From an uncultured bacterium (lineage in GTDB: Bacteria > Armatimonadota > UBA5829 > DTLH01): 64,000 nucleotides of DNA. Under the pieces are notes generated by a model. It searched no databases. It saw nothing but the letters and a program-made list of their open reading frames with translations, and was not told the DNA's origin. Every line of letters starts with the position of its first letter. Position 1 is the first letter of the stretch. Of this stretch, positions 11,581 through 49,497 are shown piece by piece. The DNA is taken from positions 62,252 through 126,251 of the forward strand of contig CAZCCV010000002.1 in the NCBI GenBank assembly GCA_964497515.1, given 5' to 3'. Made by a program: the position numbers and the translations under genes.

Positions 11581-11715
11581 GGATTGTAAGTCTGGTCACT
11601 GATAAGTCTAGATACAAGAATACTGCTGTGAGTGTCGACGGATACTTCGAGCAGAGACCACTAAATCGTGTCAAAGGCTGACCAGGACACACCAGTCCGG
11701 GAGAGGTGTTCAAGT

Positions 11716-14805: not shown

Positions 14806-16032
14806 ATGCCTAGTTTCCAGTATACAGTACGTGATGTAAACGGAACAATGATTCCTGGAACGGTAGAAGCGGACAGCGAAGACTTACTTCGTAGACGTTT
14901 ATCCGAGCAAGGATTCGAAGTTGTCGAAATCAAGGAGACAAAGACCGGCAAAAAGAAATCTCCTGGAACGGGGTTCGGAAGAGTAAAACTGAACGATCTC
15001 GCGGTGTTCTGTCGACAGTTCTCCACTATGATCGATGCCGGAGTCTCGCTTGTACGGTGTCTGGCCGTTCTTGCAGAACAGACGGTTTCTGCGAAGCTGA
15101 AAAGGATCATTTACGATCTACAGGCCGAAGTCGAGGCTGGGCAGACGCTCTCGAGAGCACTCGGAAAGTATCCGAATGTGTTCTCTAACTTGTTTGTCGG
15201 TCTCGTAAGAGCAGGTGAGGTTGGTGGTGTTCTTGAAGAAAGCTTGCAACGTTTAGCAGGATTCCTCGAGAAAGACCAGGAACTCAGGCGAAAAGTCCGA
15301 TCAGCTATGACATATCCAGTCATAGTCATGTTCGTGGCTTTGGGCATAGTTATATTCCTGGTTACCTTCATCCTTCCGAGTTTTATGACTTTGTTCGATG
15401 ACCTTGGTGTAAAGGAGTTCCCTGCTCCTACCGCGCTTCTCATGGCATTTAGCAACTTTTTGACCAGCAAATGGTACATTATGCTGATTGGACTGGTCAT
15501 CTTCGTAGTGGCATCGCGCGCGTTCTTGTCTACAAAAGTCGGTAAACGTTTGTTTGATAGGTTCAAACTGAAGGTTCCGGTTTTCGGAAACCTGAACCAC
15601 AAAATCGTTCTTGCCAGATTTTCAAGAACGCTCGGCACACTGCTTGCATCGGGTGTCCCTATTTTGCAGGCGTTGGAGACTGTCGCAGGGACTGTCTCCA
15701 ACGAGATTGTGAGTGATGCGATTTTGGAGGCTAGAGCTAGGATTAGAGAAGGAGACCGTATTGGAGATCCCCTTCAAAAGAGCAAATTGTTCCCGCCAAT
15801 GGTTGTTCAGATGATCTCGATTGGCGAGGAATCTGGAGCTCTCGACCCGATGCTTGCCAAAGTTGCAGACTTCTATGAATCTGAGGTTGATGCTACACTC
15901 GCGTCCCTTACGTCTGCTATTGAGCCTATTATGATCGTATTCTTGGGTGGTGCGGTTGGATTCATCGTTATTTCGATCTTCCTGCCGTTGATCTCTGTTA
16001 TCACGAGTTTGACTGGTGCTGGAGGCGAGTAG
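14806..16032 (+). CDS. pilC: Type IV pilus inner-membrane platform protein PilC (GspF family)
   Basis: Two GspF repeats, each with conserved cytoplasmic helices and TM segments (e.g., LSRALGKYPNVFSNLFVGLVRAGEVGG and the repeat EIVSDAILEARARIREG...MISIGEESG). AGGAGG RBS. Confidence 0.9.
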   Translation: MPSFQYTVRDVNGTMIPGTVEADSEDLLRRRLSEQGFEVVEIKETKTGKKKSPGTGFGRVKLNDLAVFCRQFSTMIDAGVSLVRCLAVLAEQTVSAKLKRIIYDLQAEVEAGQTLSRALGKYPNVFSNLFVGLVRAGEVGGVLEESLQRLAGFLEKDQELRRKVRSAMTYPVIVMFVALGIVIFLVTFILPSFMTLFDDLGVKEFPAPTALLMAFSNFLTSKWYIMLIGLVIFVVASRAFLSTKVGKRLFDRFKLKVPVFGNLNHKIVLARFSRTLGTLLASGVPILQALETVAGTVSNEIVSDAILEARARIREGDRIGDPLQKSKLFPPMVVQMISIGEESGALDPMLAKVADFYESEVDATLASLTSAIEPIMIVFLGGAVGFIVISIFLPLISVITSLTGAGGE

Positions 16033-16906
16033 CCTGATACCGTTTTGGCTAGGAGCCTTGATAGTTTTTGTCTACGGCACCGCGATTGGCAGCTTTTTGA
16101 ATGTTGTCATTTACCGGATGCCGCTAGACTTATCTATTGTGCGACCACCTTCTCATTGCCCGAAGTGCAATACACGGCTTCGGGCAATTGACCTTATTCC
16201 ACTGCTGAGCTTTCTGGTGCTCGGCAGGAAGTGTCGCTACTGTGGCGAGCCCATAGGATGGCGGTACTTTGGCGTCGAACTGTTGACCGGGCTTGCACTG
16301 CTGGCACTGTATGCCAAGTTCGGATTTGAGATTAATTTCTTTGTGTTTGCACTGTTTACATCGGCGCTTATTGCTGTTGTGTTTATTGATCTCGACCATT
16401 GGATTATTCCGGATCAGATCAACCTGTTCGGGGTGATTCTGGGTGTCGGGAGAGATATTCTTGGGTTTCTGTTGCACGAGGAGGGTCACGTTTTTCTCAG
16501 GATTCCTATCCCTGCAACGGAGATCAGTGTTCCGATGCTGTGGTCCGTCGTTGGGCTTCTCATCTGCGGTGGGATTTTCTATTTTATCGCGGTTGTTGGG
16601 GGGCTGGTCTTCAAGAAAGACGCGATGGGCGGCGGCGATATTAAGCTGGCGGCGGCGATTGGCGCGGTTATGTGTGGGTCGATCACTTCGTGGTTTGGGC
16701 TGGGACTTGCGCTGCTGTCGTTCTTCCTTGCTGTTTTTGTCGGCTCGATAATAGGTATCGGTATGAAAATAGCAGGGGCGAGTTCGGGGAAAGAGAATTA
16801 TCTTCCGTTTGGGCCGATGATGGTGATCGGTGTTTTCGCAACGTGGTTTGTTGGGCAACCGATGATCAAGTGGTATCTTGGATTTCTGCAGCGCGGAGGG
16901 ATGTAA
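16016..16906 (+). CDS. pilD: Prepilin peptidase (A24 family, PilD)
   Basis: GSFLNVVIYRMP; zinc-finger CPKCNTRL...CRYCGEPI; catalytic Asp regions (VFIDLDHWIIPD; GGGDIKLAAAIG). GTG start overlaps the pilC end. Confidence 0.9.
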   Translation: MLEASSLIPFWLGALIVFVYGTAIGSFLNVVIYRMPLDLSIVRPPSHCPKCNTRLRAIDLIPLLSFLVLGRKCRYCGEPIGWRYFGVELLTGLALLALYAKFGFEINFFVFALFTSALIAVVFIDLDHWIIPDQINLFGVILGVGRDILGFLLHEEGHVFLRIPIPATEISVPMLWSVVGLLICGGIFYFIAVVGGLVFKKDAMGGGDIKLAAAIGAVMCGSITSWFGLGLALLSFFLAVFVGSIIGIGMKIAGASSGKENYLPFGPMMVIGVFATWFVGQPMIKWYLGFLQRGGM

Positions 16907-17044
16907 GCAAACACACGCTTGCCCGCTTTTCAGGAACTATCTGAGCCCAAACTGAGTCGTATACCTAGAGGGGCCCTAAGGCATGGTGTTTTCCGTTCTG
17001 CCCGCTTATACGCCGGGCTGGATCGGATTAGCAATGCCTGCCAG

Positions 17045-17074
17045 CAAGGGCAGGGTTTTGAGTTTTATGGATGC
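17045..17074 (+). terminator. Rho-independent terminator after pilD
   Basis: CCTGCC-agcaag-GGCAGG followed by GTTTTGAGTTTT. It separates the ATPase/platform operon from the pilin operon. Confidence 0.5.
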
Positions 17075-17120: not shown

Positions 17121-17888
17121 ATGAAGACGGTGCGCGGCAAGCACGGATTCAGCCTTATTGAGCTTCTCACTGTAATTGCTATCATCGCCATTCTTGCGGC
17201 GATCATCTTCCCGGTTATGTCGAGCGTCAAAGCAGAAGCCAGGAAGACCAAATGTATGACGCAGCTTCAGCAGATCGCTTCTGCTATGAAGATGTTTCAG
17301 ACGGATAACCGCAAATACCCGGAGTCGCTGGGAGGCTTTGTTCAGTACGACGGCGAGGGAATTGTCCCGATGGAGCGCTCGCGTGGAGACGCGCTCTATC
17401 CGCAGTATGTGAAGAGCGTTAGCGTATTCCATTGCCCGGATTCTCCGGTTACCAACACCAATTCGGTAGTGAGAATCAGTGTTGGCGGTCAGAACTTCGA
17501 TTATTATGCATACGACAGCTACGATGTCTTTGTGCCGAATCCTGTAGAGCCAGGTGCGGTAGTGCCGGCTGGCATTCCGGATATTAGATACACCACGCAG
17601 TGGGCGGATAGTGTTGCGAGTGTTAGCCTGCTGCCTCCGAGCGCAGGTAAGTCAGATGGTGACGGACTGCGGCGGTACGACTTCAAACGTCAGCTCCATT
17701 TCCGCAACCCGTCGGATGATACTGTGGTTACGTGGTGCAGCTATCACGCTAAACAGGGTGACACCAAATCGATGGTGTTGGTGCTGTTCCTGGATGGACA
17801 TGTAGACAAGATTCCCGCTGTGCAGGTGCAGGGTGATCCTTCAACTGGCGCCGTTGGAAGCAGGCAGAGGACTTCTCCGAAGCTGTAG
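17121..17888 (+). CDS. Type IV pilin-like protein with prepilin N-terminal methylation motif and C-terminal H-X9-DG tail (DUF1559-type)
   Basis: Class III signal KHG|FSLIELLTVIAIIAILAAIIFPV with Glu at +5. C-terminal ...AKQGDTKSMVLVLFLDGHVDKIP matches the H-X9-DG tail of the large prepilin family of Planctomycetota/Verrucomicrobiota/Armatimonadota. Confidence 0.8.
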   Translation: MKTVRGKHGFSLIELLTVIAIIAILAAIIFPVMSSVKAEARKTKCMTQLQQIASAMKMFQTDNRKYPESLGGFVQYDGEGIVPMERSRGDALYPQYVKSVSVFHCPDSPVTNTNSVVRISVGGQNFDYYAYDSYDVFVPNPVEPGAVVPAGIPDIRYTTQWADSVASVSLLPPSAGKSDGDGLRRYDFKRQLHFRNPSDDTVVTWCSYHAKQGDTKSMVLVLFLDGHVDKIPAVQVQGDPSTGAVGSRQRTSPKL

Positions 17889-17982
17889 TGGCATTTTGAC
17901 TGGTGGTTCTGGGTAACCGCCAAGCCACGTTCAGGCATTGTGGCGGTTGCCCTGACGGTCACCTTTGATGGCGGAGGCGGCT

Positions 17983-19641
17983 ATGAGACTGATGAAAAAC
18001 AATCGAGGCACATCACTTGTTGAAGTGCTGGTTGTTATGGTGGTACTCCTGCTGGGGATTATGACCATCGTACGACTTTACCCAACGGGGTTCCAGTCGG
18101 TTCGACACGCGGAGAGTATAACCTTTGCCAACAGGCTCGCCCAGTACGAATTGGAGCGCTGGAAGAACAACTCAGCGAATCTGCCTGATGGCGTTCTTCC
18201 TATTGATGATTCTGGCGCTGTGCTGAACGATCAAAACGGCGGACCTCCGATTGTGGAAGACTACAACGGCGGTGTGCTGGTTTCCGATAACGCTACCACG
18301 TTCCGCCGAGTCATTGGCGAAACGACAAAAATCCCCTTTGGCGGATGGTCAATTGACAGCCCGTCCTCTGGTTCGATGTACGTTCTCGCCTTCGGCCCAA
18401 TCAGCAATACTGCGGGTTCTTTGGCTGTCCGCGGTGGTAATCTGACTAGAAGGGTCTTCGACTCAAGCGACGGCAGCATTCAACCGTGGGCGTACTTGAG
18501 AGGCTCTCAGTACGGTATCGACTACGGTGAACAGGGCGAAAAACCGCAGTTTTGCTTCCCTGTAGCTATGTCAGACAGGCAATACTTTATCTCTTACTCG
18601 TGGTGGGAGAGGGGTTCCGGCGAGCCCGTTATGAAGACTGCTACAAGCATTCCGGTGCGTGTTGCTGCCAATACTAGAGGCTGGATATCGCTGACTCAGA
18701 TACTAAACGATGCCGGAATGAGTGTTCCGACTGGCTTCATCGGTCTTGACCAGTACAGCGATACCGCTGCTAGGGGGTTCCTTGAGGTAGCAAACTTCTC
18801 TTCGGATGCTTACGAGTTCAAGCTGCTCGATCCTGTTCTTGGGATACTGTCGTTCAACCCTCTGGGCTACTCACAGACCGAGTTCGGACACTCGCTCGAA
18901 GCAAAGATCGACTACGATATCCTGGATCTCCAGATCATTCGCGAAGACAAGCGTGTTTCGCAGAGTGGGCCGTTTATCGTCAACCTCACACTTCATGACC
19001 TGAAAGAAACAGGTGTGAGTGTAGAAGTCAACGGCGATACATACCAAGGCATACATCCACCGGTCATCCCTGCGGGTGTTGACGTGATGGCCATTGACCT
19101 CGAAACACTGATGGCGATTCCGATAGAGAAAATCTGGATCGACTACAAGGCCGGTATAATTAATCTTCCAGCTACTGTTACGCTCGTCGGCGAGGGAAGC
19201 ACGGTGCCTAACATTTCACCTGCTGGACGCAATATTAGGTTCTACTACAAAGCCGAGGGTGATTGGTCGTTGCAGTTCCAGAAAGCGTATGTCCAGTATG
19301 AGAGACGCGATTCCGGAACTCTGGACTTCAAGTCTTATATGCCCGATGCTTCAGATTTCAGAAAGATCTGGCTGTCGGCGTGCAATGTAAATCATTCCAT
19401 TGCAGTAGACTACGACTATTTGGACAATAGCGGGCAGGTTCGAAAGGTAGTCGGTGAGAACCACAAGGCGACTGATGCTTTGGATTTGCTTGGCTCGACC
19501 AAGTGTACTTACATTACTTTGGATCACGATCCGATCCGCATTTATTCAGTGAATGGCGTGTCTGCACGCGCTAGAGTGCTATGGCGCGAAGGCGAGCGCT
19601 GGAGGCACGTCCAGCTCGATACGATTCTCACTCGCAAGTAG
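17983..19641 (+). CDS. Giant minor-pilin/pseudopilin-like protein (PilV-like position), 552 aa
   Basis: Prepilin signal NNRG|TSLVEVLVVMVVLLLGIMTIV with Glu+5; the remainder is a large beta-rich globular domain with no recognised family. The track ORF starts at 17965; ATG 17983 chosen. Confidence 0.7.
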   Translation: MRLMKNNRGTSLVEVLVVMVVLLLGIMTIVRLYPTGFQSVRHAESITFANRLAQYELERWKNNSANLPDGVLPIDDSGAVLNDQNGGPPIVEDYNGGVLVSDNATTFRRVIGETTKIPFGGWSIDSPSSGSMYVLAFGPISNTAGSLAVRGGNLTRRVFDSSDGSIQPWAYLRGSQYGIDYGEQGEKPQFCFPVAMSDRQYFISYSWWERGSGEPVMKTATSIPVRVAANTRGWISLTQILNDAGMSVPTGFIGLDQYSDTAARGFLEVANFSSDAYEFKLLDPVLGILSFNPLGYSQTEFGHSLEAKIDYDILDLQIIREDKRVSQSGPFIVNLTLHDLKETGVSVEVNGDTYQGIHPPVIPAGVDVMAIDLETLMAIPIEKIWIDYKAGIINLPATVTLVGEGSTVPNISPAGRNIRFYYKAEGDWSLQFQKAYVQYERRDSGTLDFKSYMPDASDFRKIWLSACNVNHSIAVDYDYLDNSGQVRKVVGENHKATDALDLLGSTKCTYITLDHDPIRIYSVNGVSARARVLWREGERWRHVQLDTILTRK

Positions 19642-19708: not shown

Positions 19709-21544
19709 ATGAAAAGGACTGGGGCAAGAGCTGGTTTTACCATAATTGAATTACTTGTGGTCATCACGATCACGGTCATGTTGTTGGGGCTTATTATCGG
19801 TCCGGTCGTTCAGACCTTCGGGTTGACTCGCCAGGCTCAGGCTATGGTGCAGGCTCAGGATACCGCGCGATCGACTCTTTCTATGATCAGTCGCGATCTG
19901 AGCCAAGCGATGTTCGTTTACGACAACTCGAACAGTGCGATGAACTTCCCGTGCATACAGCCTGATGGTGTGACGCCGGTAGTGCTCAGTGCACAGTATG
20001 GCAAGGTCGATATGATTCTACCTAAGCTAACGATGCACTGTAACAATCCGGATCATCATGACGGATCGCGCGATTATGAGCGAGGAGATGAGGCGTGGCC
20101 AAGATGCCCTGTCTGCGGTTCTGACGAAGTCGAGGCACGACCAAGGCAGCCATTAACGCCTGATGCCAAAATAGTGCGCTACTTCATCGGTTTGGTAGAT
20201 AACGATCCTGCTTCGATATCTGATGCAGCTCCGAATCCCGGCTACCGAGATTGGCCGGAGACCGGGTCTCCGCTGAACGGCTTCATCCTTTACAGGGCAG
20301 AGGTCAATCCATATGACGACTCTGAGGATCCGATGAGTGGGCACAACCTGTTCCGCTATGGTGCGGATGGCAATCCGATATTGGATGATCCTAATTTCTT
20401 CTATGATACGGACATTGCACCTAATGGGGAGCCATACTGGAAGAACTGGAAGTCGACGGCGAAGCCTGTTGGTTTGCAAACAGAGACGGATCTAGTCATA
20501 CTCCGTTTGAATAACGAAGAGACTGCTATTGTATCTCTCACACCGAGCGTTCGCTTCCAGCTTTCACAGGTCACGAACGACACATTTGAGCCGTCGCATA
20601 TTGCGGATGAGAGTGCAGAGTCTCCCATAAGTATTCCATCGGTGTTTAAAGCAACATACGGCGGGTGGGGAACCTCTACAGGACCATTCAATACCGACAT
20701 CTATAGCGTTACAGTATTCCGTCCTGGTGGAGCGGCTGGTGATGCTTGGTTTAGAACCAGATGGGACTGGAATGGCGCAACTAGCAGCTATCATCTCGTT
20801 ATATACAAATACACCGGTGGAGGGAGCAACGCCATATTCGATTGCACTGCTTACGAAAAGTCGGGAGTCTTTCCGGCGAGCGCACCGGACATTGCATTTT
20901 TGGTCGATCCGAACAGAGGCGAGGTCAGATTCGACTTCCCAGACTCGGATGTCATAAACGGTAACCACATAGTTGATATGAACAAACAGGTGCGTGACAC
21001 GTGGGGCGAACCTACAAGCGCACCGCGGCGAACGTATCGCCTGACCAAGTTCCGCAGTATCAATGCCAACGATCTGTTCCAGCCACGAATTGTGCCTGGG
21101 AGCGAGGTTGTTGTCGGCCCTGATATGTCACCGGACAAAGTGGTGATGGTGCCGGATGGTCACGGGAGTTACGTGGTTCAGACACTCAATCCTAACCCTG
21201 TGAGGTACGAAAGAGTGCCATTTAATCTCGGTGATCCGGGACGCAATCAATACAAAATCGATTATGGTATGGAAGACCTGGCGGGACAAGCCGTCGGGCG
21301 GATGATTTTCAGCCCGGCTTATGATGAGCCGATTCCAGAGGTTATGCCTGATGGTTCACCTGCGCAATTTGTGATTAGATACAAGTTCCAGTGTAACCGT
21401 GATCAGGACGTGCTTCAGGGCAACTACGCTACAAAGAGCCTGATGCAGGTTACAGTCGGTATTCGGTTCTACGACAGGCAGTCTGGCAAGCTGTATCCTC
21501 TGGAGCTCTCAGACAAGATCAAAGTCCGTAACCTGATGAGGTAG
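19709..21544 (+). CDS. Giant minor-pilin/pseudopilin-like protein (PilW-like position), 611 aa, with Cys/His-rich insert
   Basis: Prepilin signal ARAG|FTIIELLVVITITVMLLGLIIG with Glu+5; a Cys/His-rich insert lies at residues 82-136. Confidence 0.7.
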   Translation: MKRTGARAGFTIIELLVVITITVMLLGLIIGPVVQTFGLTRQAQAMVQAQDTARSTLSMISRDLSQAMFVYDNSNSAMNFPCIQPDGVTPVVLSAQYGKVDMILPKLTMHCNNPDHHDGSRDYERGDEAWPRCPVCGSDEVEARPRQPLTPDAKIVRYFIGLVDNDPASISDAAPNPGYRDWPETGSPLNGFILYRAEVNPYDDSEDPMSGHNLFRYGADGNPILDDPNFFYDTDIAPNGEPYWKNWKSTAKPVGLQTETDLVILRLNNEETAIVSLTPSVRFQLSQVTNDTFEPSHIADESAESPISIPSVFKATYGGWGTSTGPFNTDIYSVTVFRPGGAAGDAWFRTRWDWNGATSSYHLVIYKYTGGGSNAIFDCTAYEKSGVFPASAPDIAFLVDPNRGEVRFDFPDSDVINGNHIVDMNKQVRDTWGEPTSAPRRTYRLTKFRSINANDLFQPRIVPGSEVVVGPDMSPDKVVMVPDGHGSYVVQTLNPNPVRYERVPFNLGDPGRNQYKIDYGMEDLAGQAVGRMIFSPAYDEPIPEVMPDGSPAQFVIRYKFQCNRDQDVLQGNYATKSLMQVTVGIRFYDRQSGKLYPLELSDKIKVRNLMR

Positions 21545-21558
21545 AAGCGAGCACTATT

Positions 21559-24339
21559 ATGAATATTTACAATTGCGGCAGATTACGGCATAAAGGTGAG
21601 CAGGGTCAGTCTCTGATCCTTGCAGTTATAGTAATGTTCCTGCTGGTGTTTATCGGCGTGATTTTTGTTCTGCTTGTGGCTAGAAACCAGGGGCGCGCGG
21701 GACGGTCGCGAGATATGGTGCAGGCACAGGCTCTCGCTGAAGCCGGAATTCACTTTGCCGATTCAATGCTTACATCGAGCGAGGATGGGGCCGATTGGCG
21801 TCCTGAACCTGCAAATTTGGGGTTCGCGTGGGATCCGGCAACTGGCTACACTCCTACGGCGGATCTGCCCGATGTTGCCGAGAACCATCCCGACTTCAAA
21901 TGGTTGAGACCGTACCAGCCGGTTGATACAGACGTGACGGTTGGTGGTGCTACAGTGCGTGGCGCTATGGGGCCGTCGGGTGGCTTTACGGCTGTAGAGA
22001 CGGGCGGTGGCAGGTATCTGCTCCGTGTTAGCTATAATCCGGATCGAAATGATCCGATGTCGAAGTTTATCAAGATCGAATCAATCGGGCGCATTGGAAT
22101 TGTTGATTTCAATGACCCTACCACTTGGGGTGAGGACAACCGAATTCGTCGGGAATTCACGGCCTATAAGCCTATCGGAGTAACCGACTATATGCGCTTC
22201 GTCACCAACAAGGACAAGCGTTCGGCAGATATTCCTCTTGGCGCTGCAGGTTTTGATGTCAGCTATGGCTACTGTAAAGACCCTAACGACTGGCGGCCTG
22301 CTCCGATAAGAGTCAACGGAAATCTTGCTTGGACAGGCAGAGAGATTGATATCTATCTGGATGGCAGCACTACTCCAGACCTCGGGTTTGTTCCCACGAG
22401 TCTGGTTGAGGTTGCTGGCGATATCAAGCACGCTCTCAATCCTGAAGACAACGACAACCCCGCTAGGGTGTTTGTATTCAAAGTGGAAAACGGTGCGGCG
22501 AGCACTGCAATTCCTGTTCAGCCGAGCACAATTGGTTCTGGCTTTGATACTGTAAACGGTCTGTATCGAGATGGCTCAAATGATACTGGTCTTCAGCGGG
22601 AAGCCAGGGGAATCAAATACCTTGGCCCACCGAGTATAGAAGAAGTGTCGGGGCCCAACAAGATACCGCGATACATCGCGCTTACCAGAGATTCTGGCAA
22701 TTGGCTGCAGTCGAACAGTGGGTTTATGGTTAACAGCGGCCGCTACGGATGGGGAAGGGGCGTTTACATCGATAACGTTTCCGACTTGCAGCCGGAAAGT
22801 GAAACGCTCTTCGGTGGTTATACTCCTCGTGCCGACTGGATTAAGCCTAACAACCGTATGTCTTCATACTGGCAGGGGCCCTACTACGTGCCGCCTGGCG
22901 TAGTGATTTCACTCAACCCGTACGATACAGATGGCGATGGTCTGCCGGATATTACAATGACTCGCACAGATGTCGTTACTCGTGCGCGAGATCCTCTGTA
23001 CGGCAAGAAATCGATATGGTACGATGCGGCTGGAAACCCGATGCACGAAAAGGGTTCAACGATAACAATCCCTTATCCACAGGGTGATCAGACCTTTACC
23101 TACTGGCACGATGCCAATAACAACGGCGTGCACGAGTCCAGCGAGGATATGAGTATTTCAATTGATCGCAATGGTGTCATCTATGCTGCAGGCAACGTAC
23201 GTATTCGCGGTATGTTGGCCAAAGGAAAGCAGCTTACGGTGGTATCAGGTGGAATAATCTATATCGAAGGCAATGTGTTGAAGCACCGAGACTTGAATAC
23301 AGGTGTCGTTGATGAGACAAGTGCCATATCGCTTCTTGCGAGAGACTATGTGTGTGTGAATACTACTCAGTTCGTAGGTCTTCTAACCAGCGCCGGGCCG
23401 AGTTCATTCGTCTCCGATGCTGGAACCGGACAGGCTCCGTATAGTCAGCTAATCACACCGGAGCCAGCGACTACGTTCTTTACAACGTTCTCATACGGCC
23501 CGAATACTGGCAATGCCGGTCTCGATTCAATGCTCTTTGTTCGCCAGGCCGGCGAGTATGGCCCGGCATATATCAATATGTGGCTCAACAGACGCCTAGG
23601 AGGAAACCAGGGGTTGGTCGCTATTGGCACGGATGATGGTGGAAATATCGGCCCGCTTGGTTCTTGGGTATATGGTTGTGGAGACCCACGATTCTCTTTA
23701 GAGGGGACAGGCGTTTCAGGGCTGTTTGAGCACAAAGTGTGGAACCTGACGAATGCATTTACAGGTAACGGGCTTCACACTGGTGTAGGTGTGCCGAACT
23801 ACTTCGAAGTTGCACTCGATCAGTCTACATATATGCGAAACAACTATCTGCTTTCGGCGTTTACGATTCAGCCGTTGGATGTTAGGATTGAGGCTGCGAT
23901 GTTTGCGCAGAACAGGTCGTTCTTTGTTATTCCGGGATCGTGGTTCAATCAGAATGCGACCGATACCCCGGATGTCAGCACGGGTTCTCGTGATGTTCCG
24001 AGACCTCGCGGCGTTGACAAGAGATGGCCGTTCTACAGTGACGCGCTCGATACTAAGATTACAATCGACGGTGCGATAACTGAAAATCTTCCGGCATCCA
24101 CTGCTGATGTCAGCGAATGGTACTCCAAATGGAGCAATATTCCTGCTACGTATGGCAGTTCCGGAGTGGACACTGCTCACGGCGGGGATGGACTTACTTT
24201 TGTATACGACCCAATGCTGGGTTATCCGGTCGATTCTTTCGGTAGACCTGTGCGAACGGACGAATACGGCAGAGCGCTTCCTATTACGCCGCGCCTGCCT
24301 ATGTGCCGTGATCTCTACTACTATGGCGAACCCACCTAA
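21559..24339 (+). CDS. PilX/GspK-like pilin-like protein lacking Glu+5, 926 aa
   Basis: N-terminus GEQG|QSLILAVIVMFLLVFIGVIFVLLVARNQ then RDMVQAQALAEAGIHFADSML resembles the PilX_N / GspK N-terminal domain (hydrophobic helix, A-x-AEAG motif). Like GspK it has no Glu at +5. Long beta-rich C-terminal region. Confidence 0.6.
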   Translation: MNIYNCGRLRHKGEQGQSLILAVIVMFLLVFIGVIFVLLVARNQGRAGRSRDMVQAQALAEAGIHFADSMLTSSEDGADWRPEPANLGFAWDPATGYTPTADLPDVAENHPDFKWLRPYQPVDTDVTVGGATVRGAMGPSGGFTAVETGGGRYLLRVSYNPDRNDPMSKFIKIESIGRIGIVDFNDPTTWGEDNRIRREFTAYKPIGVTDYMRFVTNKDKRSADIPLGAAGFDVSYGYCKDPNDWRPAPIRVNGNLAWTGREIDIYLDGSTTPDLGFVPTSLVEVAGDIKHALNPEDNDNPARVFVFKVENGAASTAIPVQPSTIGSGFDTVNGLYRDGSNDTGLQREARGIKYLGPPSIEEVSGPNKIPRYIALTRDSGNWLQSNSGFMVNSGRYGWGRGVYIDNVSDLQPESETLFGGYTPRADWIKPNNRMSSYWQGPYYVPPGVVISLNPYDTDGDGLPDITMTRTDVVTRARDPLYGKKSIWYDAAGNPMHEKGSTITIPYPQGDQTFTYWHDANNNGVHESSEDMSISIDRNGVIYAAGNVRIRGMLAKGKQLTVVSGGIIYIEGNVLKHRDLNTGVVDETSAISLLARDYVCVNTTQFVGLLTSAGPSSFVSDAGTGQAPYSQLITPEPATTFFTTFSYGPNTGNAGLDSMLFVRQAGEYGPAYINMWLNRRLGGNQGLVAIGTDDGGNIGPLGSWVYGCGDPRFSLEGTGVSGLFEHKVWNLTNAFTGNGLHTGVGVPNYFEVALDQSTYMRNNYLLSAFTIQPLDVRIEAAMFAQNRSFFVIPGSWFNQNATDTPDVSTGSRDVPRPRGVDKRWPFYSDALDTKITIDGAITENLPASTADVSEWYSKWSNIPATYGSSGVDTAHGGDGLTFVYDPMLGYPVDSFGRPVRTDEYGRALPITPRLPMCRDLYYYGEPT

Positions 24340-24404: not shown

Positions 24405-27400
24405 ATGATGATGAGACGAAAAATCCCAATCATAGCCACCTTGGCGGTTCTGATTTCAGTGGCGCTGACGACAGGTGTGTTTGCAGCCGGCCAGTTATAT
24501 GTGGATAAACAGCGAACCATTAACGCTGGTGTGCTTGTGCCTACAAGGCCAAACTCTACACTGGCCGATCCTGCGGCTCCATTCGTCTTTTATATAATGG
24601 GTGCGAGAGAGGATGCAAAACCGCACGCTTGGAACTTCGTTAATCCTCTAGCCGGCGGAAGAGACAGCTTCAAAAATGTGAAAGACTATTGGCTGGTTTC
24701 ACTGCCGCAGACTACGTTTGAAAATCTTATCAAGTTCGATGTGCTGTATCTCAGTACTACTCAGCTTGTTAACTTCCGGATGGCGGACAAGGACAAACTG
24801 CGCAGATTCGTCGACGGCGGTGGTTGTCTGTGGGTAGACGGCGGAGCTGGAATGACGTTTTCGAGCGTGCTGGGCGATGCCTTCTTCCTGCCTCAGATGA
24901 ACTTTGTGTCTGGCGGCTCCGGCATACCTATGCTCGCACAGCGCTTGCATCCGGTTGTGACCAACCCATTTTGGCTGAACCAGGATGAGATAACAATACT
25001 TGGCCAGGGGCCAACAACGATTAATCCGGGGTACGATAGCGGTTTTGGTTCGATGCCCGATCCAAACACACTCTCTCCCGTTGTTTTGCTAAGCGGTGGA
25101 CTCGGCGCTGCAAAACCGACTATAGCTACTGTCGAATATGGTAGCGGCAGGATTGTTGTCACGTCGCATTTTATCGGAGGAATGATAGAACGTCCGGTGA
25201 CTGGCAATACAGCTGTGAACGTAATCACTACTCAGAACTCGAATCTGATGTTTGCCAACACATCGGCATTGAGATTTGCCTATAACGTGGTTGCATACGG
25301 CAGTTCCTCTACATCGTTCCGCAAGAACTACCGTCGTAGTGGGGTGTCCATTGAGAATCTGGCGGCTCCGCTCGATCCAAAATGGCGCGCTCCTATAGTC
25401 TCTCCTGGAGGAGCTACGATAGAGAATAGCCCAGTCATCTGGAAGAATATGATCTTCGTGACCAGTGGCAACACGATTTACGCATTCGATGCCAATCCCG
25501 AGTTCGATCTGGATCAGAACGGCAATCTGGATGATGGTGTGCCGAATCCAGGGCAGCCTTTCGATTTGGTGTGGTCTTATTCGTGTCCCGGCCAGATATC
25601 GAGCCCGACAGTAGCTACGATGTTAGACCCTCGGACATCAGGGCAACTCTCTGCATCTGATTTTATTATGGTCAACTGTACCGATGGCAGGGTATATGTC
25701 TTTGATACAGTGCCGGTTGATTCTTCAACAGGCATGATTGCCACTAACCCCGGCGCTGCACAGCCGATACCTTCGTTCTGGAAGGTAACAATGAACGTTG
25801 GATCAGGCCCGCTGCTGCCACCAGTTGCTCAGAACGGGTGGATCTACTGTGTTGGAAGTGACGGCGTCGTTTATGCGTACAGCCCGATTATATCTGCTGG
25901 TTCAGGCACATTCGATCTGCCTGCGGACTCTTGGGCAGTTCCACTGTTTCCTGGTACCAGCGGTTACAATGTGAGTGTGAAGTCTGGGCCGCTCCTAGGT
26001 TACGTCAAGAATCAGACTAATGGAGCGATTGTTCAGGTTTTGTACGTGGTCGCAAGGCCGCCTATGATCTCAACCGACCCCAACGCAGGGAACCCAAACG
26101 ATTGCATCTATGCGCTTCCTCTTTATGTGTGCAGCGATCGCCTTATGCCTAGAAACCCGAACGCGCTTAGGGGTTCTCCTACGGGAGCAATACCGTTTAG
26201 AATCGGGTTCTTGAGTGGAATGGGCACCAATCTGCCTGTGTCGAAGTATCCAGCACCTGAAGTCTGGGCTTATAACCCTGTATATAACGCTGCCGATGCT
26301 GATGCTGTAACTCCGGTACCTGTAGAGGCCGATTTCCAGCAGTCGAATACCGGCACAGTGAACATAACAGTGACTCCGCCCAATAGAATTGGTCCGAACA
26401 TTCGTGTCTATGCGACATATGGCATTGACTACAGTGCATTCCAGAGTTCAATGTCAGCTCCGGTTCCGATGTACGAGCTGAAGCCAAAAGTTGGAGGCTC
26501 TGTTGATATTATTAACCTGAGTATCAATGCTACTCCCGCTATGGGGTCTAACGATACTCTCTATATGGGTGTTAAGAATGATTCCAGTATAGGCGACCCG
26601 GGATCCGGGCACGCTTGGGTGTATTCGGTGTGGTTCGATGGCAACCCATCTGCCGCACGACTGAAGTGGAATTACTTCCTCCACGGCGGCGGTCTTATGC
26701 AGGATCCTACTAGCACAGTCTCATCGACAGGCAGAGTCCCTCTCGATGCTGCTGATCCTTCTCGCCTTTGGGGTGTGAGGGCTAAAGATCCTGTAACAGG
26801 AGCAATTGTGCCCGTGCGGCATTTGGAAGTCCGTTCAACTCCTGCAGTCACAAGAGATAAGGTATTTGCAATAGCGACAACGGATAATCCAGGAAGCCCG
26901 AATCTTCCACGCTCATATTTGCTCTGCTTCAAGGCGGACTCGAGCTTTGTTATTCGCCTGAATCGTTCGCTTTATGATACTAGCAACAACCAGCGAATGA
27001 GTGTTAAGCTGTGGCAGCCGGACTTCCTGTTCAACACGGCAAATGTGGCTCAATCTCCGCTGCTCACATCTGTTCAGGTGCCTTCGGATATGATTGACTA
27101 CAATTCCGGCACTGTAACGATTAACGACTTTGCCAAGCTCAGAGTTCAGGGTTCGTCGATCTCAGGTGTGCAGACCAGTCCGTTGACACCATCACTCCCT
27201 GTTTGGGTGTTCATTAATAATCAGCCTGTTCCTATCAATGAAGTCGATCTGTCCAGTTGGGACAATCTGCTGTGGGCGCTTCCAATACCGAACAATGGTA
27301 GCCACGTGACCAGTGTGTCGTCATCGCCGATAGTGTTGGGCGATTACGTGTATTTTGTCAGCGATGATGGCTATCTGTACTCCGTGCTGGCAGAAGTCAA

Positions 27401-28880
27401 TCCGCCCAACCCCAAGACAAAAATGCTGGATGTCACGGCGAAAGACTCTGAATCCTGGTTTGTCGTGCAGCAGATTGATCCGGCGGGTGCATCGGGCACA
27501 AACAGGCGGAATCTGTCGCTTGCCGGCGGGAATGGATTGCTGGCAGTCCCTACGGATTCCGGATTATATGTGTTCAAGAACCAGACAACGCTTGTTACCG
27601 ACAACAGACGAGTGATGGAGATCGGCAGCGACGGAAGAGTGATTTGGTCATGCGACTCTGTCATTCAGCCCGAGATAATTAGTGACTCTGTGCCGCCTGT
27701 TTACGGTATCCTCCCTCAGGAGCTGAATAAGCCGCTTGTTGCACAGAAACTGGGGTCTTCCGACTACCTTGTTGTCGACTCCGGAAATGACAGAGTGATA
27801 CGAATGGACAAAGGTGGCCAGGTCACCTGGTCGCTAAGCCAGTTCATCGACCCACAGGGGCTTCTCCGCTCCGGCGAACCGCTTCGTCTGAAGAATCCGA
27901 GCGATGCTGTAGTGTGGGGTGAGTTTGAGAAGCGCGATGGCAAATGGTACTATCTGTACCACTGTCTCGTAGCCGACAGCGGAAATTTCCGGATTGTCGA
28001 TATTGTCAACCGCTTCAATGCCAACGACAAGATGCAGATTCTAAGTCCATATGGCGTAGATTCGAACGGAAGACCGATTCACGAATTGAACTGGGTGTCG
28101 CAGACTACCAGCAGGGACAAACGATACTCATACAACTCTATAGAGCTAGTGCGCGGCAATCCGGGCGGAGACCCGAGCCGCTTGATGAATTGGATATGGG
28201 CGTCCACCTCGAACTATGGGCTCGGAACCGCGACCGATCCGACACAGAAAGAGAGTACAGGAGGAGGTCAGCTCGGTGGTGCTATCATCAGTATGGAGTA
28301 CCGCGAGAGCGCATCAGCAAACTCGGCTGAATGGAATTATCTGGACGGAAGAGTCGATGGACAGTTGACCACACTCCTTGATAACAAAGGCGCCGGGCCC
28401 GCGATTGCACTTTCGCGACCGAGTTACTTCACTGTGCTCGATTCCGGCACTCAACGGCTGCTGATATGCGATTCTTCCGCTGTATACGTGACGGAGGGAC
28501 GCGACATTCAGTGGAAGTTCACCTCGGAGGACTATCGAAATATGCCGCGCGAGGTGATAAATGAGTTCACACAGACTCCTGTCCCGAGACCGGTTCGAAT
28601 ACCGATTCCGTTTTCTCCACAGCGTGCGCAGATGCTTGACGACGGTACGTGCCTTATTGTAAATAGCTTTGCTGGCAGGATGTACGACAAGGCGGGCAGC
28701 AAGTTTACCGGAGAGATATTCAGAGTCGATTCTAGTCACAATCTGCGCTGGTTCACTCCAAGGCTCTGGTGGGTGCCAGATACACCGACCAGCCAGCCAG
28801 GGGATGACGGCGTATTCGTTCAGAAGACGTTGAATGCTCCCAATATGGATCAGCCTACTTCGGCACAGCGGCTGAAATAG
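24405..28880 (+). CDS. 1491-aa secreted multi-domain protein: GATase1/ThuA-like N-domain + PQQ-like and NHL-like beta-propeller repeats (PilY1-like position)
   Basis: Signal peptide MMMRRKIPIIATLAVLISVALTTGVFAAG. N-terminal block (FDVLYLSTT...RFVDGGGCLWVDGGAG) resembles ThuA/DUF4159 class-I glutamine-amidotransferase-like folds. Repeated PQQ/BamB-like segments (TIYAFDANPEF, RVYVFDTVP, WIYCVGSDGVVYAYSP, YVYFVSDDGYLYSV). C-terminal NHL-like repeats (YLVVDSGNDRVIRMD, HCLVADSGNFRIVDI, LICDSSAVYVTEG). Confidence 0.6.
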   Translation: MMMRRKIPIIATLAVLISVALTTGVFAAGQLYVDKQRTINAGVLVPTRPNSTLADPAAPFVFYIMGAREDAKPHAWNFVNPLAGGRDSFKNVKDYWLVSLPQTTFENLIKFDVLYLSTTQLVNFRMADKDKLRRFVDGGGCLWVDGGAGMTFSSVLGDAFFLPQMNFVSGGSGIPMLAQRLHPVVTNPFWLNQDEITILGQGPTTINPGYDSGFGSMPDPNTLSPVVLLSGGLGAAKPTIATVEYGSGRIVVTSHFIGGMIERPVTGNTAVNVITTQNSNLMFANTSALRFAYNVVAYGSSSTSFRKNYRRSGVSIENLAAPLDPKWRAPIVSPGGATIENSPVIWKNMIFVTSGNTIYAFDANPEFDLDQNGNLDDGVPNPGQPFDLVWSYSCPGQISSPTVATMLDPRTSGQLSASDFIMVNCTDGRVYVFDTVPVDSSTGMIATNPGAAQPIPSFWKVTMNVGSGPLLPPVAQNGWIYCVGSDGVVYAYSPIISAGSGTFDLPADSWAVPLFPGTSGYNVSVKSGPLLGYVKNQTNGAIVQVLYVVARPPMISTDPNAGNPNDCIYALPLYVCSDRLMPRNPNALRGSPTGAIPFRIGFLSGMGTNLPVSKYPAPEVWAYNPVYNAADADAVTPVPVEADFQQSNTGTVNITVTPPNRIGPNIRVYATYGIDYSAFQSSMSAPVPMYELKPKVGGSVDIINLSINATPAMGSNDTLYMGVKNDSSIGDPGSGHAWVYSVWFDGNPSAARLKWNYFLHGGGLMQDPTSTVSSTGRVPLDAADPSRLWGVRAKDPVTGAIVPVRHLEVRSTPAVTRDKVFAIATTDNPGSPNLPRSYLLCFKADSSFVIRLNRSLYDTSNNQRMSVKLWQPDFLFNTANVAQSPLLTSVQVPSDMIDYNSGTVTINDFAKLRVQGSSISGVQTSPLTPSLPVWVFINNQPVPINEVDLSSWDNLLWALPIPNNGSHVTSVSSSPIVLGDYVYFVSDDGYLYSVLAEVNPPNPKTKMLDVTAKDSESWFVVQQIDPAGASGTNRRNLSLAGGNGLLAVPTDSGLYVFKNQTTLVTDNRRVMEIGSDGRVIWSCDSVIQPEIISDSVPPVYGILPQELNKPLVAQKLGSSDYLVVDSGNDRVIRMDKGGQVTWSLSQFIDPQGLLRSGEPLRLKNPSDAVVWGEFEKRDGKWYYLYHCLVADSGNFRIVDIVNRFNANDKMQILSPYGVDSNGRPIHELNWVSQTTSRDKRYSYNSIELVRGNPGGDPSRLMNWIWASTSNYGLGTATDPTQKESTGGGQLGGAIISMEYRESASANSAEWNYLDGRVDGQLTTLLDNKGAGPAIALSRPSYFTVLDSGTQRLLICDSSAVYVTEGRDIQWKFTSEDYRNMPREVINEFTQTPVPRPVRIPIPFSPQRAQMLDDGTCLIVNSFAGRMYDKAGSKFTGEIFRVDSSHNLRWFTPRLWWVPDTPTSQPGDDGVFVQKTLNAPNMDQPTSAQRLK

Positions 28881-34746: not shown

Positions 34747-36174
34747 CTAATGGGGCGCTTCTTCGCACAGGATGCTTGCAATTGCCTGGCAAACGATCTC
34801 GTCTTCGTTCAGCAGAATAGTTCTCACATCCAGCAGAACCGTATCTTGGTGCACCCGAGCAAAAACAGGGGTAGGGTAGTGTCGAAGTTTGCGCGAAAGA
34901 GTCTCGGCTGAGATCTCTCTTGGCCTGATGCTGATCAGTTTTGTGGGCATCGTCTCAGCGGGAACCGACCCGCTTCCCACCTGAGACATTCCGTTCTCAA
35001 CACTTACAGATGCTTTGTCGCCAGTGTTAGCAATCAGGTTCTCTGCAATTGCTTTAGCGCGAGGGTCAAGCTGCTCAATGGTGAGAGAGAGCATCCTGTA
35101 AGTTGGATGATTTGCTTCCAGCTTGTCCAGGTCTAAGAAGAGTCTTAATGTAGCTTCGAGCGCGGCTACTTCCATCTTGCTAATTCTGAGCGCACGAGCC
35201 AGCGGATTCTTTTTGATTGCTGATACTACGGAAGTCTTACCAACGATAATCCCGCACTGTGGCCCGCCGATTAGTTTGTCCCCGCTGAAGCATACGGCAT
35301 CGGCTCCTGCTATTACACTCGAGGTAACCAGCGGCTCTCGTTCCATACCATAGCGGCTAATATCTACCAGGGCACCGCTCCCCACGTCGTCTATAAGCCA
35401 CAAGTTGTTTTCCTTCGCCAGTGGAGCTAGGTCATCAATAGAAGGTTCTTCCGAAAAACCCACGATTTTGTAGTTGCTGTGGTGAACTCTAAGTATTGCG
35501 CCTGTGTTTTCGTTGATGGCCTCAGCGTAGTCACTCAGGCGGGTCTTATTCGTGGTGCCAACTTCGCGAAGGATGGCACCGCTCATCTCCATGACTTCCG
35601 GCATTCTAAATGCTCCGCCGATTTCCACCAGTTGCCCTCGCGATATTATCACTTCTTTTCCTTTTGCGAGGGTGTTAAGGGTGATCATTGTTGCTGCAGC
35701 ATTGTTGTTCACTGCGGTGGCCGCTTCTGCACCCGTAAGTTCCGTAAGAATATCTCTAAAATGAATATCGCGGGTTTCCCGTTTTCCTGTTTCAATACTT
35801 GCTGCGAGGGTGCAATAGCCAGCAATGACATCATTCACGGCATCTATTGCAGCCTGTGGCATAGCAGCGCGCCCGAGGCCAGTGTGTAGAATCACACCCG
35901 TTGCATTAATGGCTCGACGAACTGAAGGAGATAGTTTCTTTGCTACGGCTTTCGATACACGTATTGTGATCGATTCTCGGTCTACACCAATCGGAGTATC
36001 TGAAGAGGCTGCGATTATCTCACGACGAACAGCTTCAACAGTCGCACGCGCGGCACTCACAACCAAATCCCGGCCGTGAGCTTGAGCGAGCTGCAGAAGC
36101 TCGGGTGTGTTCAGAAGCTCGTCTATTGACGGTAGAAGTCTCAGCGTATCTTTCATATGTCCAACCTCAGGCAT
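34747..36174 (-). CDS. selA: L-seryl-tRNA(Sec) selenium transferase
   Basis: Alignable with E. coli SelA over the whole length (GVILHTGLGRA, AVNNNAAA, GKEVIISRGQLVEIGGAFR, PLP-lysine motif FSGDKLIGGPQCGIIVG, RALRISKMEVAALEATL). An alternative start is the Met 6 codons downstream. Confidence 0.9.
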   Translation of the reverse strand: MPEVGHMKDTLRLLPSIDELLNTPELLQLAQAHGRDLVVSAARATVEAVRREIIAASSDTPIGVDRESITIRVSKAVAKKLSPSVRRAINATGVILHTGLGRAAMPQAAIDAVNDVIAGYCTLAASIETGKRETRDIHFRDILTELTGAEAATAVNNNAAATMITLNTLAKGKEVIISRGQLVEIGGAFRMPEVMEMSGAILREVGTTNKTRLSDYAEAINENTGAILRVHHSNYKIVGFSEEPSIDDLAPLAKENNLWLIDDVGSGALVDISRYGMEREPLVTSSVIAGADAVCFSGDKLIGGPQCGIIVGKTSVVSAIKKNPLARALRISKMEVAALEATLRLFLDLDKLEANHPTYRMLSLTIEQLDPRAKAIAENLIANTGDKASVSVENGMSQVGSGSVPAETMPTKLISIRPREISAETLSRKLRHYPTPVFARVHQDTVLLDVRTILLNEDEIVCQAIASILCEEAPH

Positions 36175-38556: not shown

Positions 38557-38883
38557 TTGCTACATCCTCGAATTATCTAATCATCCTCTGTCCTCGGCTC
38601 AAGAGGGCTGCTGGCAATTGCCTTCACGTATTCTCGTCAATTATTAGTGTATGGAGTCTCGGATTGCTACGCTAAGTGGGATCCAGAGCTCTCTTCCTCA
38701 GTAATCTCGAGGCAATTGAGGTCTTGTCCACAAATCCAGAGGCTTCACAGATACTCTCTGCTGTTCTGTTCGTCTAAATACATGAGTTGGTGCATTAGTA
38801 TCAGCAGAACAGTGCAAGATCAGGAAGTAGTAAAGACGTGGGATCGAATACTCTTTCGACTCCCCAACAAGGAGGGAGCTGCC

Positions 38884-40349: not shown

Positions 40350-40940
40350 TTGGTATTGCGCACAATCCCGCTAGTAGTCATCTGTGTTTTGCTCTCCGGA
40401 TGGGCAATAGCTATGCCCACAGCTGAAGTCAGCACAAAAACGCTGCGCGTATCTGCTACTGCGCACACGCTGGAAAGCGGTGCTGATGCTAGCTCGCGCA
40501 TCTTTGAACTAAGCTACGGCGTCACTCCCACTATTGGAATTGAGGCCGAACTTGCGCGAATTGCCGATGATTTTGGCAAAACGAGTGTAGCAAACGCTTA
40601 TGTGAAGCTTCCTTTAGACACCCGGAGTTCATCTGAGCTCAAAACTTCAGCGTACATTGGGGCTACTATGGTTCGGGTGGATCTTCACGGTCTCGGAGCG
40701 GAGAGCAGGGTGGGGCCGGCGCTTGGGATTATAGCAGAGACTCCTGTGGCAGAGTATACAACAGCCTACGGCCGTGCCGGGGTTGCTTTCCTTGCCAGCA
40801 CAATGTTCACCTTCGACCTGGGTATCAAATACGAAATCAGACCAGGTTGGCATTTGTCAACCGGATTTAGAGGCTACACTATTGGCAGTTCAGCGCTCGG
40901 TGGGTTTTTAGCTGGCGCGACTTACACCATTTCTCTGTAG
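40350..40940 (+). CDS. Putative outer-membrane beta-barrel protein (about 195 aa)
   Basis: Signal peptide; alternating hydrophobic/polar beta-strand pattern throughout (SAYIGATMVRVDL, GVAFLASTMFTFDLGIKYEI, GFLAGATYTISL). TTG start; no family assignment. Confidence 0.4.
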   Translation: MVLRTIPLVVICVLLSGWAIAMPTAEVSTKTLRVSATAHTLESGADASSRIFELSYGVTPTIGIEAELARIADDFGKTSVANAYVKLPLDTRSSSELKTSAYIGATMVRVDLHGLGAESRVGPALGIIAETPVAEYTTAYGRAGVAFLASTMFTFDLGIKYEIRPGWHLSTGFRGYTIGSSALGGFLAGATYTISL

Positions 40941-48759: not shown

Positions 48760-49497
48760 TTGGCAAAAACAATTCGAGTCACAGTCTGGAATGAGTACAG
48801 GCACGAAAAGCATCCGGATAGAGAACCCGCGAAAGTCTATCCTGAGGGGATGCACGCCGCAATTGCTAAGCATCTGAGTGCTCAGCCCGGTCTCGAACTC
48901 CGTACAGCTACACAGGATGAGCCCGAGCACGGGCTTACCGAAGAAGTTCTGGCAAACACCGACGTTCTGACGTGGTGGGGGCACATAGCTCACCATGAGG
49001 TATCGGATGATATTGTCAACCGAGTACATAAACGTGTTGTCGAAGATGGCATGGGGTTGATTGTTCTGCACTCTGGCCATTTGTCGAAACCGTTTGTGAA
49101 GCTGATGGGAACTGCTTGCACGCTTAAATGGCGGGAGGCGGGAGAGAAAGAGCGGCTTTGGGTTATCGACCGATCACACCCAATTGTCGAAGGTGTGCCC
49201 GACTATTTTGAGCTTCCACATACCGAGATGTACGGTGAGCCTTTCAGCATACCCGCTCCGGATGAACTCGTGTTCGTGAGCTGGTTCCAGGGTGGGGAAG
49301 TGTTCCGCAGTGGATGCTGCTGGCACAGAGGCCGGGGGAAGGTCTTCTACTTCCGACCGGGACACGAGACATTCCCTATCTTCTACGATGAGAATGTGCT
49401 TAGGGTAATCACAAACGCTGTTCGCTGGGCTGCTCCTGTAGCCGGGCCAGCAATGGCGTCTGGAGCTTCATGCCCGCCACTCGAGAGCCTGGATTAG
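48760..49497 (+). CDS. ThuA-like (trehalose-utilisation / class-I glutamine amidotransferase-like) protein
   Basis: [12 protein letters not shown]...[40 protein letters not shown] are typical ThuA-family motifs. Confidence 0.6.

Follow-up and report, generated by a model that had tools for sequence, protein, structure and literature searches.

A giant exported DUF4159-like and beta-propeller protein in the PilY1 position of Armatimonadota pilus loci: a candidate tip-complex partner outside the PilY1 family

Introduction

A current question in the study of type IV filaments is how tip and initiation complexes license assembly and set adhesion. The closest described counterparts of the protein treated here are PilY1 and PilC. 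Until now, one propeller family, PF05567, has served to define them, and their only known N-domains are vWFA and DUF4114, according to a 2026 survey (PMC13190605). In known systems, pilX is followed by the gene of a tip protein (PMC7541494). Rigden et al. described a propeller-borne "calcium blade" in PilY1 (3HX6, residue 851; DtDgDGlvD in Xylella), as well as in integrins and other proteins, and mutation of the PilY1 calcium site abolishes piliation (PMC3123361). Ellison et al. reported that PilK/PilX is strand-complemented by the C-terminal ~10 residues of PilC/PilY1; assembly needs these residues, which are also partly sufficient for it (bioRxiv 10.64898/2026.02.14.705861). We describe a gene in the corresponding position of a pilus operon in a 64,000-nucleotide (nt) stretch of DNA, the window, from an uncultured bacterium of the phylum Armatimonadota (GCA_964497515.1, contig CAZCCV010000002.1, positions 62,252 to 126,251 of the forward strand). 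The gene (24405..28880, + strand, ATG start in a mechanical list of open reading frames, ORFs) encodes a multidomain protein of 1491 residues (aa), predicted to be exported, in which a DUF4159-like N-domain is followed by beta-propeller modules. We refer to it as the target.

The target is not a member of the PilY1 family. An entire, poorly studied phylum appears to fill the same operon slot with a non-homologous protein, in the company of minor pilins several times the usual size. Among publications on the pili of cultured Armatimonadota, our search found the Fimbriimonas genome paper only; it describes fimbriae along with PilB/C/D/Q/M, six genes for PilT, and 79 that are PulG-like, and the target family is not reported there (PMC4072686). 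The most probable account of the target, which we hold with moderate confidence and by analogy, is that it acts as the non-pilin partner of a minor-pilin initiation and tip complex in a retractile, type IVa-like pilus of Armatimonadota; its architecture differs from that of PilY1/PilC, of which it would be a functional analogue.

Genomic position and conservation

The target is the last gene of a cassette that lies behind a set of pilus motor genes, all on the + strand. The motor genes encode a PilB-type ATPase with an MshEN domain (11668-13485), a PilT/PilU retraction ATPase (13499-14692), a PilC platform protein (14806-16032), and a PilD prepilin peptidase (16016-16906). PilT is assigned far above threshold (TIGR01420, 510 bits vs a cut-off of 319). 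PilB scores 632 bits (cut-off 676) vs 600 on the GspE model, and the best match of PilC is a Thermus-type PilC, with GspF also matched. The window holds the combination that marks type IVa systems, namely a PilT/PilU retraction ATPase together with PilB, PilC, and PilD; no secretin or PilMNOP genes were found among the window ORFs scanned.

The cassette itself begins with a 255-aa pilin, presumed to be the major subunit (17121..17888, +; processing motif G|FSLIE), which carries N_methyl and DUF1559/SBP_bac_10 matches and also matches GspG along its N-terminus. It is followed by 3 very large proteins. The 558-aa giant minor pilin (17965..19641, +) has the prepilin motif G|TSLVE and a weak PilV match. 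The 611-aa giant minor pilin (19709..21544, +) has the motif G|FTIIE, and its N-terminus weakly matches HpsC, Verru_Chthon cassette protein C, and GspH. The 926-aa protein (21559..24339, +) has a PilX/GspK-like N-terminus and lies directly upstream of the target. These cassette genes are separated by gaps of 14-76 nt, share one strand, and run directly into the target gene; the genes downstream of the target (a HemN-like radical SAM protein and ferritin) are unrelated to pili.

The N-terminus of the 926-aa protein reads GEQGQSLILAVIVMFLLVF / GEQGQSLILAVIVMF, with the family consensus R-G-Q-[TS]-L-[IV]-[IV]-A-L. By this sequence it looks like a PilX/GspK-type pilin without Glu5. Mean column identity in its family is 34%, neither it nor its homologues match any NCBIfam model, and it appears to represent an orphan giant minor-pilin family. 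It also carries a calcium-type motif of its own, DTDGDGLPD, at aa 456-464 (nt 22924-22950).

The target belongs to a small family, and its relatives are kept in the same setting. A search of 5.8 billion proteins returned 129 of them, nearly all 1360-1710 aa long; the family as a whole spans ~1300-1860 aa and is conserved along its entire length. The gene is far beyond chance because its length and sequence are kept in >120 homologues. Named relatives come from metagenome-assembled genomes (MAGs) of Armatimonadota/Fimbriimonadales, and labelled members are almost all Armatimonadota. Taking one genome per GTDB species gave 72 species-level loci, labelled Armatimonadota (Fimbriimonadales, Chthonomonadales, Capsulimonadaceae, and Armatimonadales) except for a few unclassified bins and two probably mis-binned contigs. 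Members labelled Synechococcus sp. RC10B2, Janthinobacterium lividum (MAG), and Sedimentisphaerales (MAG), found among P0047/P0048, L056, and L067, look like contaminant or mis-binned contigs and not like horizontal transfer, since the other labels are confined to Armatimonadota and the cassette is conserved.

Synteny was followed by searching all 76 fetched loci for the window proteins with tblastn. The order pilin, 558-like, 611-like, 926-like, target was found in every locus with enough upstream DNA, with typical sizes of ~560 aa and ~610 aa for the two pilins and ~900 aa for the PilX/GspK-like protein. The linkage between target and pilin cassette is therefore strict across the phylum. PilC and PilD adjoin the cassette upstream in about half of the loci, and loci whose flank extends far enough also show PilT. 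A first-pass annotation of the window had placed the target in the "PilY1 position" of a pilus operon; this is borne out, as the gene lies directly after the PilV-like, PilW-like, and PilX/GspK-like giant pilins of a PilB-PilT-PilC-PilD-pilin operon. The co-occurrence analysis that it had proposed has now been carried out, and none of the related loci with enough flank has a homologue away from pilus genes.

In 37 of the 55 loci with enough downstream DNA, the target is followed on the same strand by an ORF of 2100-3000 aa (for example, L001:16145-23785, L003:14654-21016, and L004:14691-23516), and the 3 annotated cases carry weak Golvesin_C and PQQ_2 matches. It is a possible second component of the tip or adhesin. 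The window lacks this protein behind the target, as do its closest relatives (L005, L006, and L009), and HemN follows instead.

Two further observations concern the operon in the window. A terminator-like, GC-rich hairpin with a T-run lies at 17037-17054, between the end of pilD (16906) and the start of the pilin gene (17121). Because of this hairpin, the pilin, minor-pilin, and target cassette may be a transcription unit apart from pilBTCD, which fits locus L003, where the cassette has no adjacent motor genes. In addition, PilB, whose MshEN domain is N-terminal, reaches 37.3 bits on the model of the MshE-type cyclic-di-GMP-binding motif (NF053729, cut-off 38), a sequence match that hints at regulation of pilus extension by cyclic-di-GMP.

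Architecture of the target

The N-terminus of the target, by inspection of the translation, consists of MMMRRK, a hydrophobic stretch of 19 residues, and VFA|AG. AxA is kept at this site in the family consensus, and the prepilin G-F-x-x-x-E motif is absent from the N-terminus. The leader (aa 1-27; 24405..24485, +) thus reads as a type I (Sec) signal peptide rather than as a prepilin leader. The translation has no lipobox Cys, no transmembrane segment past the signal peptide, and no beta-barrel signature. The first-pass annotation had quoted the same ORF together with a set of internal peptides, and the translation carries each of them: FDVLYLSTTQLVNFRMADKDKLRRFVDGGGCLWVDGGAG at aa 111-149, YAFD at 359-362, VYVFD at 430-434, VYAYSP at 488-493, VVDSGNDRVIRMD at 1123-1135, and VADSGNFRIVD at 1189-1199. 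Of its 3 domain calls, ThuA/DUF4159 GATase1-like and PQQ/BamB-like hold up in Pfam, profile, and Foldseek searches, and NHL-like probably does as well.

The N-domain (aa ~35-302; 24507..25310, +) is an alpha/beta domain with a DUF4159/ThuA-like fold of the class-I glutamine-amidotransferase (GATase1) type, as indicated by Pfam, an AlphaFold2 model, and Foldseek. On the full-length target, DUF4159 (PF13709) matches aa 106-153 with 24.4 bits, slightly below the cut-off of 25.9. On the isolated N-domain (aa 28-312), the match rises above the gathering score (29.6 bits, E 5.9e-7); in the target it spans profile positions 47-95 of 202 only. Of the 32 N-domains scanned across the family, DUF4159 is matched by 31 and ThuA by 6. 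Some also match GLMA_2nd, DUF4350, ABC_transp_aux, IFT52_GIFT, and Glyco_hydro_42M, which we take to belong to one fold clan with DUF4159 and ThuA. With the family profile, the IFT52 GIFT domain is a marginal match at positions 101-188 (E 0.01-0.03). Foldseek of the modelled N-part finds the ThuA-like protein 1T0B (probability 1.00, E 2.2e-4, TMt 0.47) as well as chains of GH42-type glycosidases (5xb7 and 8oug), so that the fold is three-layer alpha/beta and similar to ThuA-like structures. In the literature searched, DUF4159 is mentioned by the Pfam database paper alone.

The N-domain shares with the DUF4159/ThuA group the motifs FVxxGGGL and HP[ILV][ILV], which appear here as KLRRFVDGGGxLWVD and HP(L/V)(L/V). 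The target belongs to this fold group by its N-domain only. It differs from the other members in that the domain is the N-terminal module of a secreted, pilus-linked propeller protein of ~1500 aa and in that it has no conserved catalytic Cys. The residue that follows the invariant D137-G-G139-G (C141, the elbow position) is V in 13, T in 10, C in 9, Q in 6, and I in 2 of 40 family sequences. H182-P183 is conserved, yet the next residue is hydrophobic and not Glu. Positions were mapped onto the GATase nucleophile and triad by motif analogy. Because the nucleophile-elbow residue is not conserved, the N-domain is probably non-catalytic.

This variant of the domain is narrowly distributed. A phmmer search of the N-domain against 1.84 billion cluster representatives returned 361 proteins at E<=1e-3; the best 150 of these are almost all either proteins of 1300-1860 aa with the domain at the N-terminus or short, probably fragmentary sequences. 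Near confinement to the N-termini of such large proteins fits a dedicated, distal module. A standalone ThuA gene elsewhere in the window (48760..49497), to which the first-pass annotation had pointed, is genuine (PF06283, E 6.6e-36), sits among the housekeeping genes SurE, RodZ-like, and GatB, and is irrelevant to the pilus locus. It was considered as a second copy of the N-domain and rejected: the hhalign probability of 0.3 is not significant, and the two share generic fold motifs only.

The rest of the target is built of beta structure. A first beta-propeller region (aa ~343-860, approximate; 25431..26984, +) contains PQQ/BamB-type blades with inserted beta segments. A beta-rich connecting region, recognized from the secondary structure of the models (aa ~861-960, approximate; 26985..27284, +), leads to a C-terminal beta-propeller region (aa ~961-1480; 27285..28844, +), in which Pfam, models, profile, and Foldseek indicate PQQ_2 and NHL-like repeats, the latter including VVDSGNDRVIRMD and VADSGNFRIVD. 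Two AlphaFold2 models were made, each on alignments of 91 sequences. The model of aa 28-960 (pLDDT 88.0, pTM 0.89) consists of the alpha/beta domain, a low-confidence linker, and then beta-rich propeller structure; that of aa 850-1491 (pLDDT 88.9, pTM 0.79) is all-beta, with ~ten four-strand groups predicted in the C-terminal propeller region.

Pfam PQQ_2 matches the target at aa 1049-1159 (E 2.5e-8, above the cut-off). A phmmer search of the target against PDB sequences gave no match, and repeat-level matches came only from a profile of 40 full-length family members: the PQQ-type "Cake" proteins (positions 472-504, E 1e-21), the NHL-type "Pizza6" (positions 1063-1127, E 3e-9), BamB (4e-6), and Brat-NHL (5e-4). 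Foldseek aligns the models to the NHL domains of TRIM2/3, Brat, and Mei-P26 with TMt ~0.5. The NHL family PF01436 matches 3 of the 32 family members (best E 2.3e-4), the target itself not being among them. BamB, TRIM2/3, Brat, and the designed Cake and Pizza proteins are single domains of 6-8 blades with unrelated functions, whereas the propellers of the target are modules inside a much larger, pilus-linked protein. BamB moreover carries a lipoprotein signal, which the target does not have, and serves outer-membrane protein assembly. NCBIfam has no family for the full-length target at E<=0.1.

Two short elements stand out by their conservation. The first is a "calcium blade" motif, Dx[DN]xDGxxD(D)G, at aa 368-378 (DLDQNGNLDDG; 25506..25538, +), identified by column counts, by the strands of the model, and by the published definition (PMC3123361). 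The family consensus is DLDGDGxPDDG, and the key positions are kept in most of 91 sequences (D368 74, D370 67, G373 77, D376 83, D377 82, and G378 89). In the AlphaFold2 model, the motif forms part of a loop that joins two strands in the first blade, where it may bind Ca2+; the calcium site of PilY1 lies at D851-D859.

The second element is the extreme C-terminal peptide MDQPTSAQRLK (28845..28877, +), a candidate strand donor to the PilX/GspK-like pilin. A variable, gappy segment precedes it, and the peptide itself fits the pattern L-x-[QK]-P-x-[SFCY]-A-x-R-x-x-COOH shared by the family (P in 91, R in 89, A in 81, and L in 79 of 91 sequences). Variants of it include QPTCxQRLF, QQPRSAxRQF, RKPSSADRGGF, and TQPTYAIRLP. 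By analogy with PilC/PilY1, this peptide could act as a donated strand. A PEP-CTERM or other sorting signal was considered for the C-terminus and ruled out, as the terminal peptide has no hydrophobic segment.

Comparison with described systems

The target resembles PilY1/PilC in several respects. It carries a signal peptide of type I, is not a pilin, exceeds 1000 aa, and places an N-terminal alpha/beta module before beta-propeller structure; it is encoded directly after the PilX/GspK-like minor pilin of a minor-pilin operon that contains PilT; and it has a conserved Dx[DN]xDG propeller-loop motif together with a highly conserved extreme C-terminal peptide. The differences lie in the modules themselves. 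PilY1 has one modified 7-bladed propeller, whereas the target has at least two propeller modules, of the PQQ/BamB and NHL-like types; the N-domain is vWFA or DUF4114 in PilY1 and DUF4159/ThuA-like (GATase1 fold) in the target; and the partner minor pilins of the target are 3-6 times larger than usual. The first-pass annotation had stated that ThuA-like and NHL domains are not part of described PilY1 proteins, in agreement with the 2026 survey (PMC13190605).

Another likeness concerns the general plan of the locus, namely unusual pseudopilins with a very large accessory protein. The Verru_Chthon cassettes (TIGR02596-02600) and the cyanobacterial HpsA-D loci each encode several unusual pseudopilins along with a very large non-pilin protein. 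HpsC and the Verru_Chthon proteins B, C, and D are weakly matched by the pilins of the window, in every case within the prepilin N-termini and far below the cut-offs. The target matches no NCBIfam model of Verru_Chthon cassette protein A or HpsA (E<=0.1).

Proposed role and alternative explanations

We propose that the type I signal peptide would direct the target through Sec into the periplasm. There it would join the 3 giant minor pilins (558, 611, and 926 aa) that prime filament assembly, and its conserved C-terminal ~11 residues would probably bind to the 926-aa, PilX/GspK-like pilin in the way in which PilC/PilY1 uses its last ~10 residues. The target would then be carried outward on the tip of the pilus. 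At the tip, attachment to a ligand would be mediated by the propellers, for which Ca2+ at the Dx[DN]xDG loop would provide stability or regulation, and by the distal, non-catalytic DUF4159/ThuA-like domain; PilT would subsequently retract the pilus.

Several observations weigh against this proposal. The PilY1 domain PF05567 matches none of the 32 family members. The family profile does not match the PilY1 chain 3HX6 even at E<=5, and the same chain is absent from the top 50-60 matches of 3 structure searches, which are dominated by generic propellers. It follows from these tests that the target lies outside the PilY1 family. The first-pass annotation is supported on position and domains, PilY1 homology is not supported, and the argument that a PQQ-like propeller speaks for a PilY1-like role falls with the same results; a role at the tip or as an adhesin draws on context and analogy, not on homology. 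The Dx[DN]xDG motif is widespread, as is the propeller fold, and each is weak evidence when taken alone. The 926-aa protein has no Pfam match (10 homologues) and no match among PDB sequences (14-sequence profile), so that its PilX/GspK identity stems only from its N-terminal sequence and its position. The monomer AlphaFold2 model already sets the last residues of the target as a confidently placed strand, and on this model the conserved C-terminus may simply serve to close the protein's own propeller, with no donation of a strand to a pilin. The real adhesin could be the secreted 2100-3000-aa protein encoded downstream in 37 of 55 loci, and not the target. Finally, Denise et al. class the detected Armatimonadetes systems as type II secretion systems (T2SS) (PMC6668835).

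The last point leads to an alternative in which the apparatus is a T2SS-like pseudopilus and the target is either a dedicated cargo that it secretes or an exoprotein released at the surface, for instance a polysaccharide-binding factor. In addition to the phylogenetic survey, which reassigned Armatimonadetes systems to T2SS (PMC6668835), the near-equal scores of PilB on the GspE and PilB models, the GspF match of PilC, and the N-terminal GspG match of the pilin are in keeping with it; the target has a Sec signal peptide, as T2SS substrates do, and Treuner-Lange et al. liken PilY1 itself, our analogue, to T2SS substrates (PMC7541494). We nonetheless regard it as quite unlikely. A PilT/PilU-family ATPase far over the cut-off is encoded in the operon and, in related loci with a flank long enough to show it, upstream, whereas T2SS normally have no PilT; T2SS cargo genes are not normally fixed behind minor pseudopilins throughout a phylum; and fimbriae are visible in Fimbriimonas (PMC4072686). 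Another reading, unlikely as well, retains the pilus and keeps the target in the envelope, as a periplasmic or outer-membrane structural part such as a scaffold, a stator, or a secretin-associated factor made of BamB-like propellers. Strict linkage to pilus genes would fit such a part equally well, among natural proteins the best scores go to BamB and PQQ_2-type propellers, and the lack of secretin and PilMNOP genes among the window ORFs scanned makes unusual envelope parts conceivable. However, the target is tied to the minor-pilin cassette and not to PilB/T/C/D, as loci of the L003 type illustrate with a cassette and target but no adjacent motor genes; it has none of the lipobox Cys, extra transmembrane segment, or beta-barrel signature that an envelope resident might show; and it occupies the slot after pilX that encodes the tip protein in known systems (PMC7541494). 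The presence of PilT in the operon and the fixed slot behind the PilX-like gene weaken both of these alternatives.

It is highly improbable that the target is an enzyme, of the glutamine-amidotransferase/ThuA type or the PQQ-dependent dehydrogenase type, that is merely co-located with pilus genes. Such a reading could appeal to the DUF4159/ThuA-like and PQQ_2 matches in Pfam, and to Foldseek, which finds PQQ-dependent dehydrogenases (4mh1, 6zcv, and 4mae) and glycosidases with the same alpha/beta domain. The residues and repeats speak otherwise, and the enzyme reading is rejected in both forms. The nucleophile-elbow residue varies (V13/T10/C9/Q6 of 40). The PQQ-enzyme repeat PF01011 touches 3 of 32 family members, weakly, and the target is matched by the BamB-type PQQ_2 only; the eight PF01011 repeats over the propeller that characterize PQQ-dependent dehydrogenases are not found in it. 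Enzyme families cover no more than a fragment of the target, so that the domain search proposed in the first-pass annotation yields no enzyme-family match along the full length, and an invariant linkage to pilins has no enzymatic rationale.

With the tip-complex account preferred, a bolder extension is possible, albeit doubtful. Armatimonadota pili would carry a previously undescribed, very large tip machine, evolved independently of PilY1 and made of 3 giant minor pilins (~560, ~610, and ~900 aa), the ~1500-aa target, and, in most lineages, the secreted propeller protein of 2100-3000 aa. Assembly would be given its "licence" by the C-terminal peptide as strand donor, and a new module for ligand binding or sensing at the tip would be provided by the GATase1-like domain.

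Implications and other observations in the window

If the target does sit on the tip, the principle of a non-pilin partner with a C-terminal strand would be broader than the PilY1 family, and the GATase1-like (DUF4159) domain would gain its first functional context. Annotation would gain as well, given that the present labels for genes of this family go no further than "DUF4159 domain-containing", "PQQ-binding-like", or "BamB family".

Other genes of the window bear on the biology of the organism more generally. Just upstream of pilB, at 10679-11392, a 237-aa protein carries a PEP-CTERM sorting motif (E 3e-5), which implies an exosortase system in the organism. A gene for SelA (L-seryl-tRNA(Sec) selenium transferase) lies at 34747-36174 (-), so the organism probably makes selenoproteins. 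Three ORFs (4830-7085, 38647-40137, and 40350-40940; 751, 496, and 196 aa) match neither Pfam nor NCBIfam families and are putative genes. A homologue of the TMEM260-like protein O-mannosyltransferases (55689-57560, -) adjoins a GH130 mannoside phosphorylase-like gene (57786-59048, +), and a link of this pair to the glycosylation of surface or pilus proteins is conceivable.

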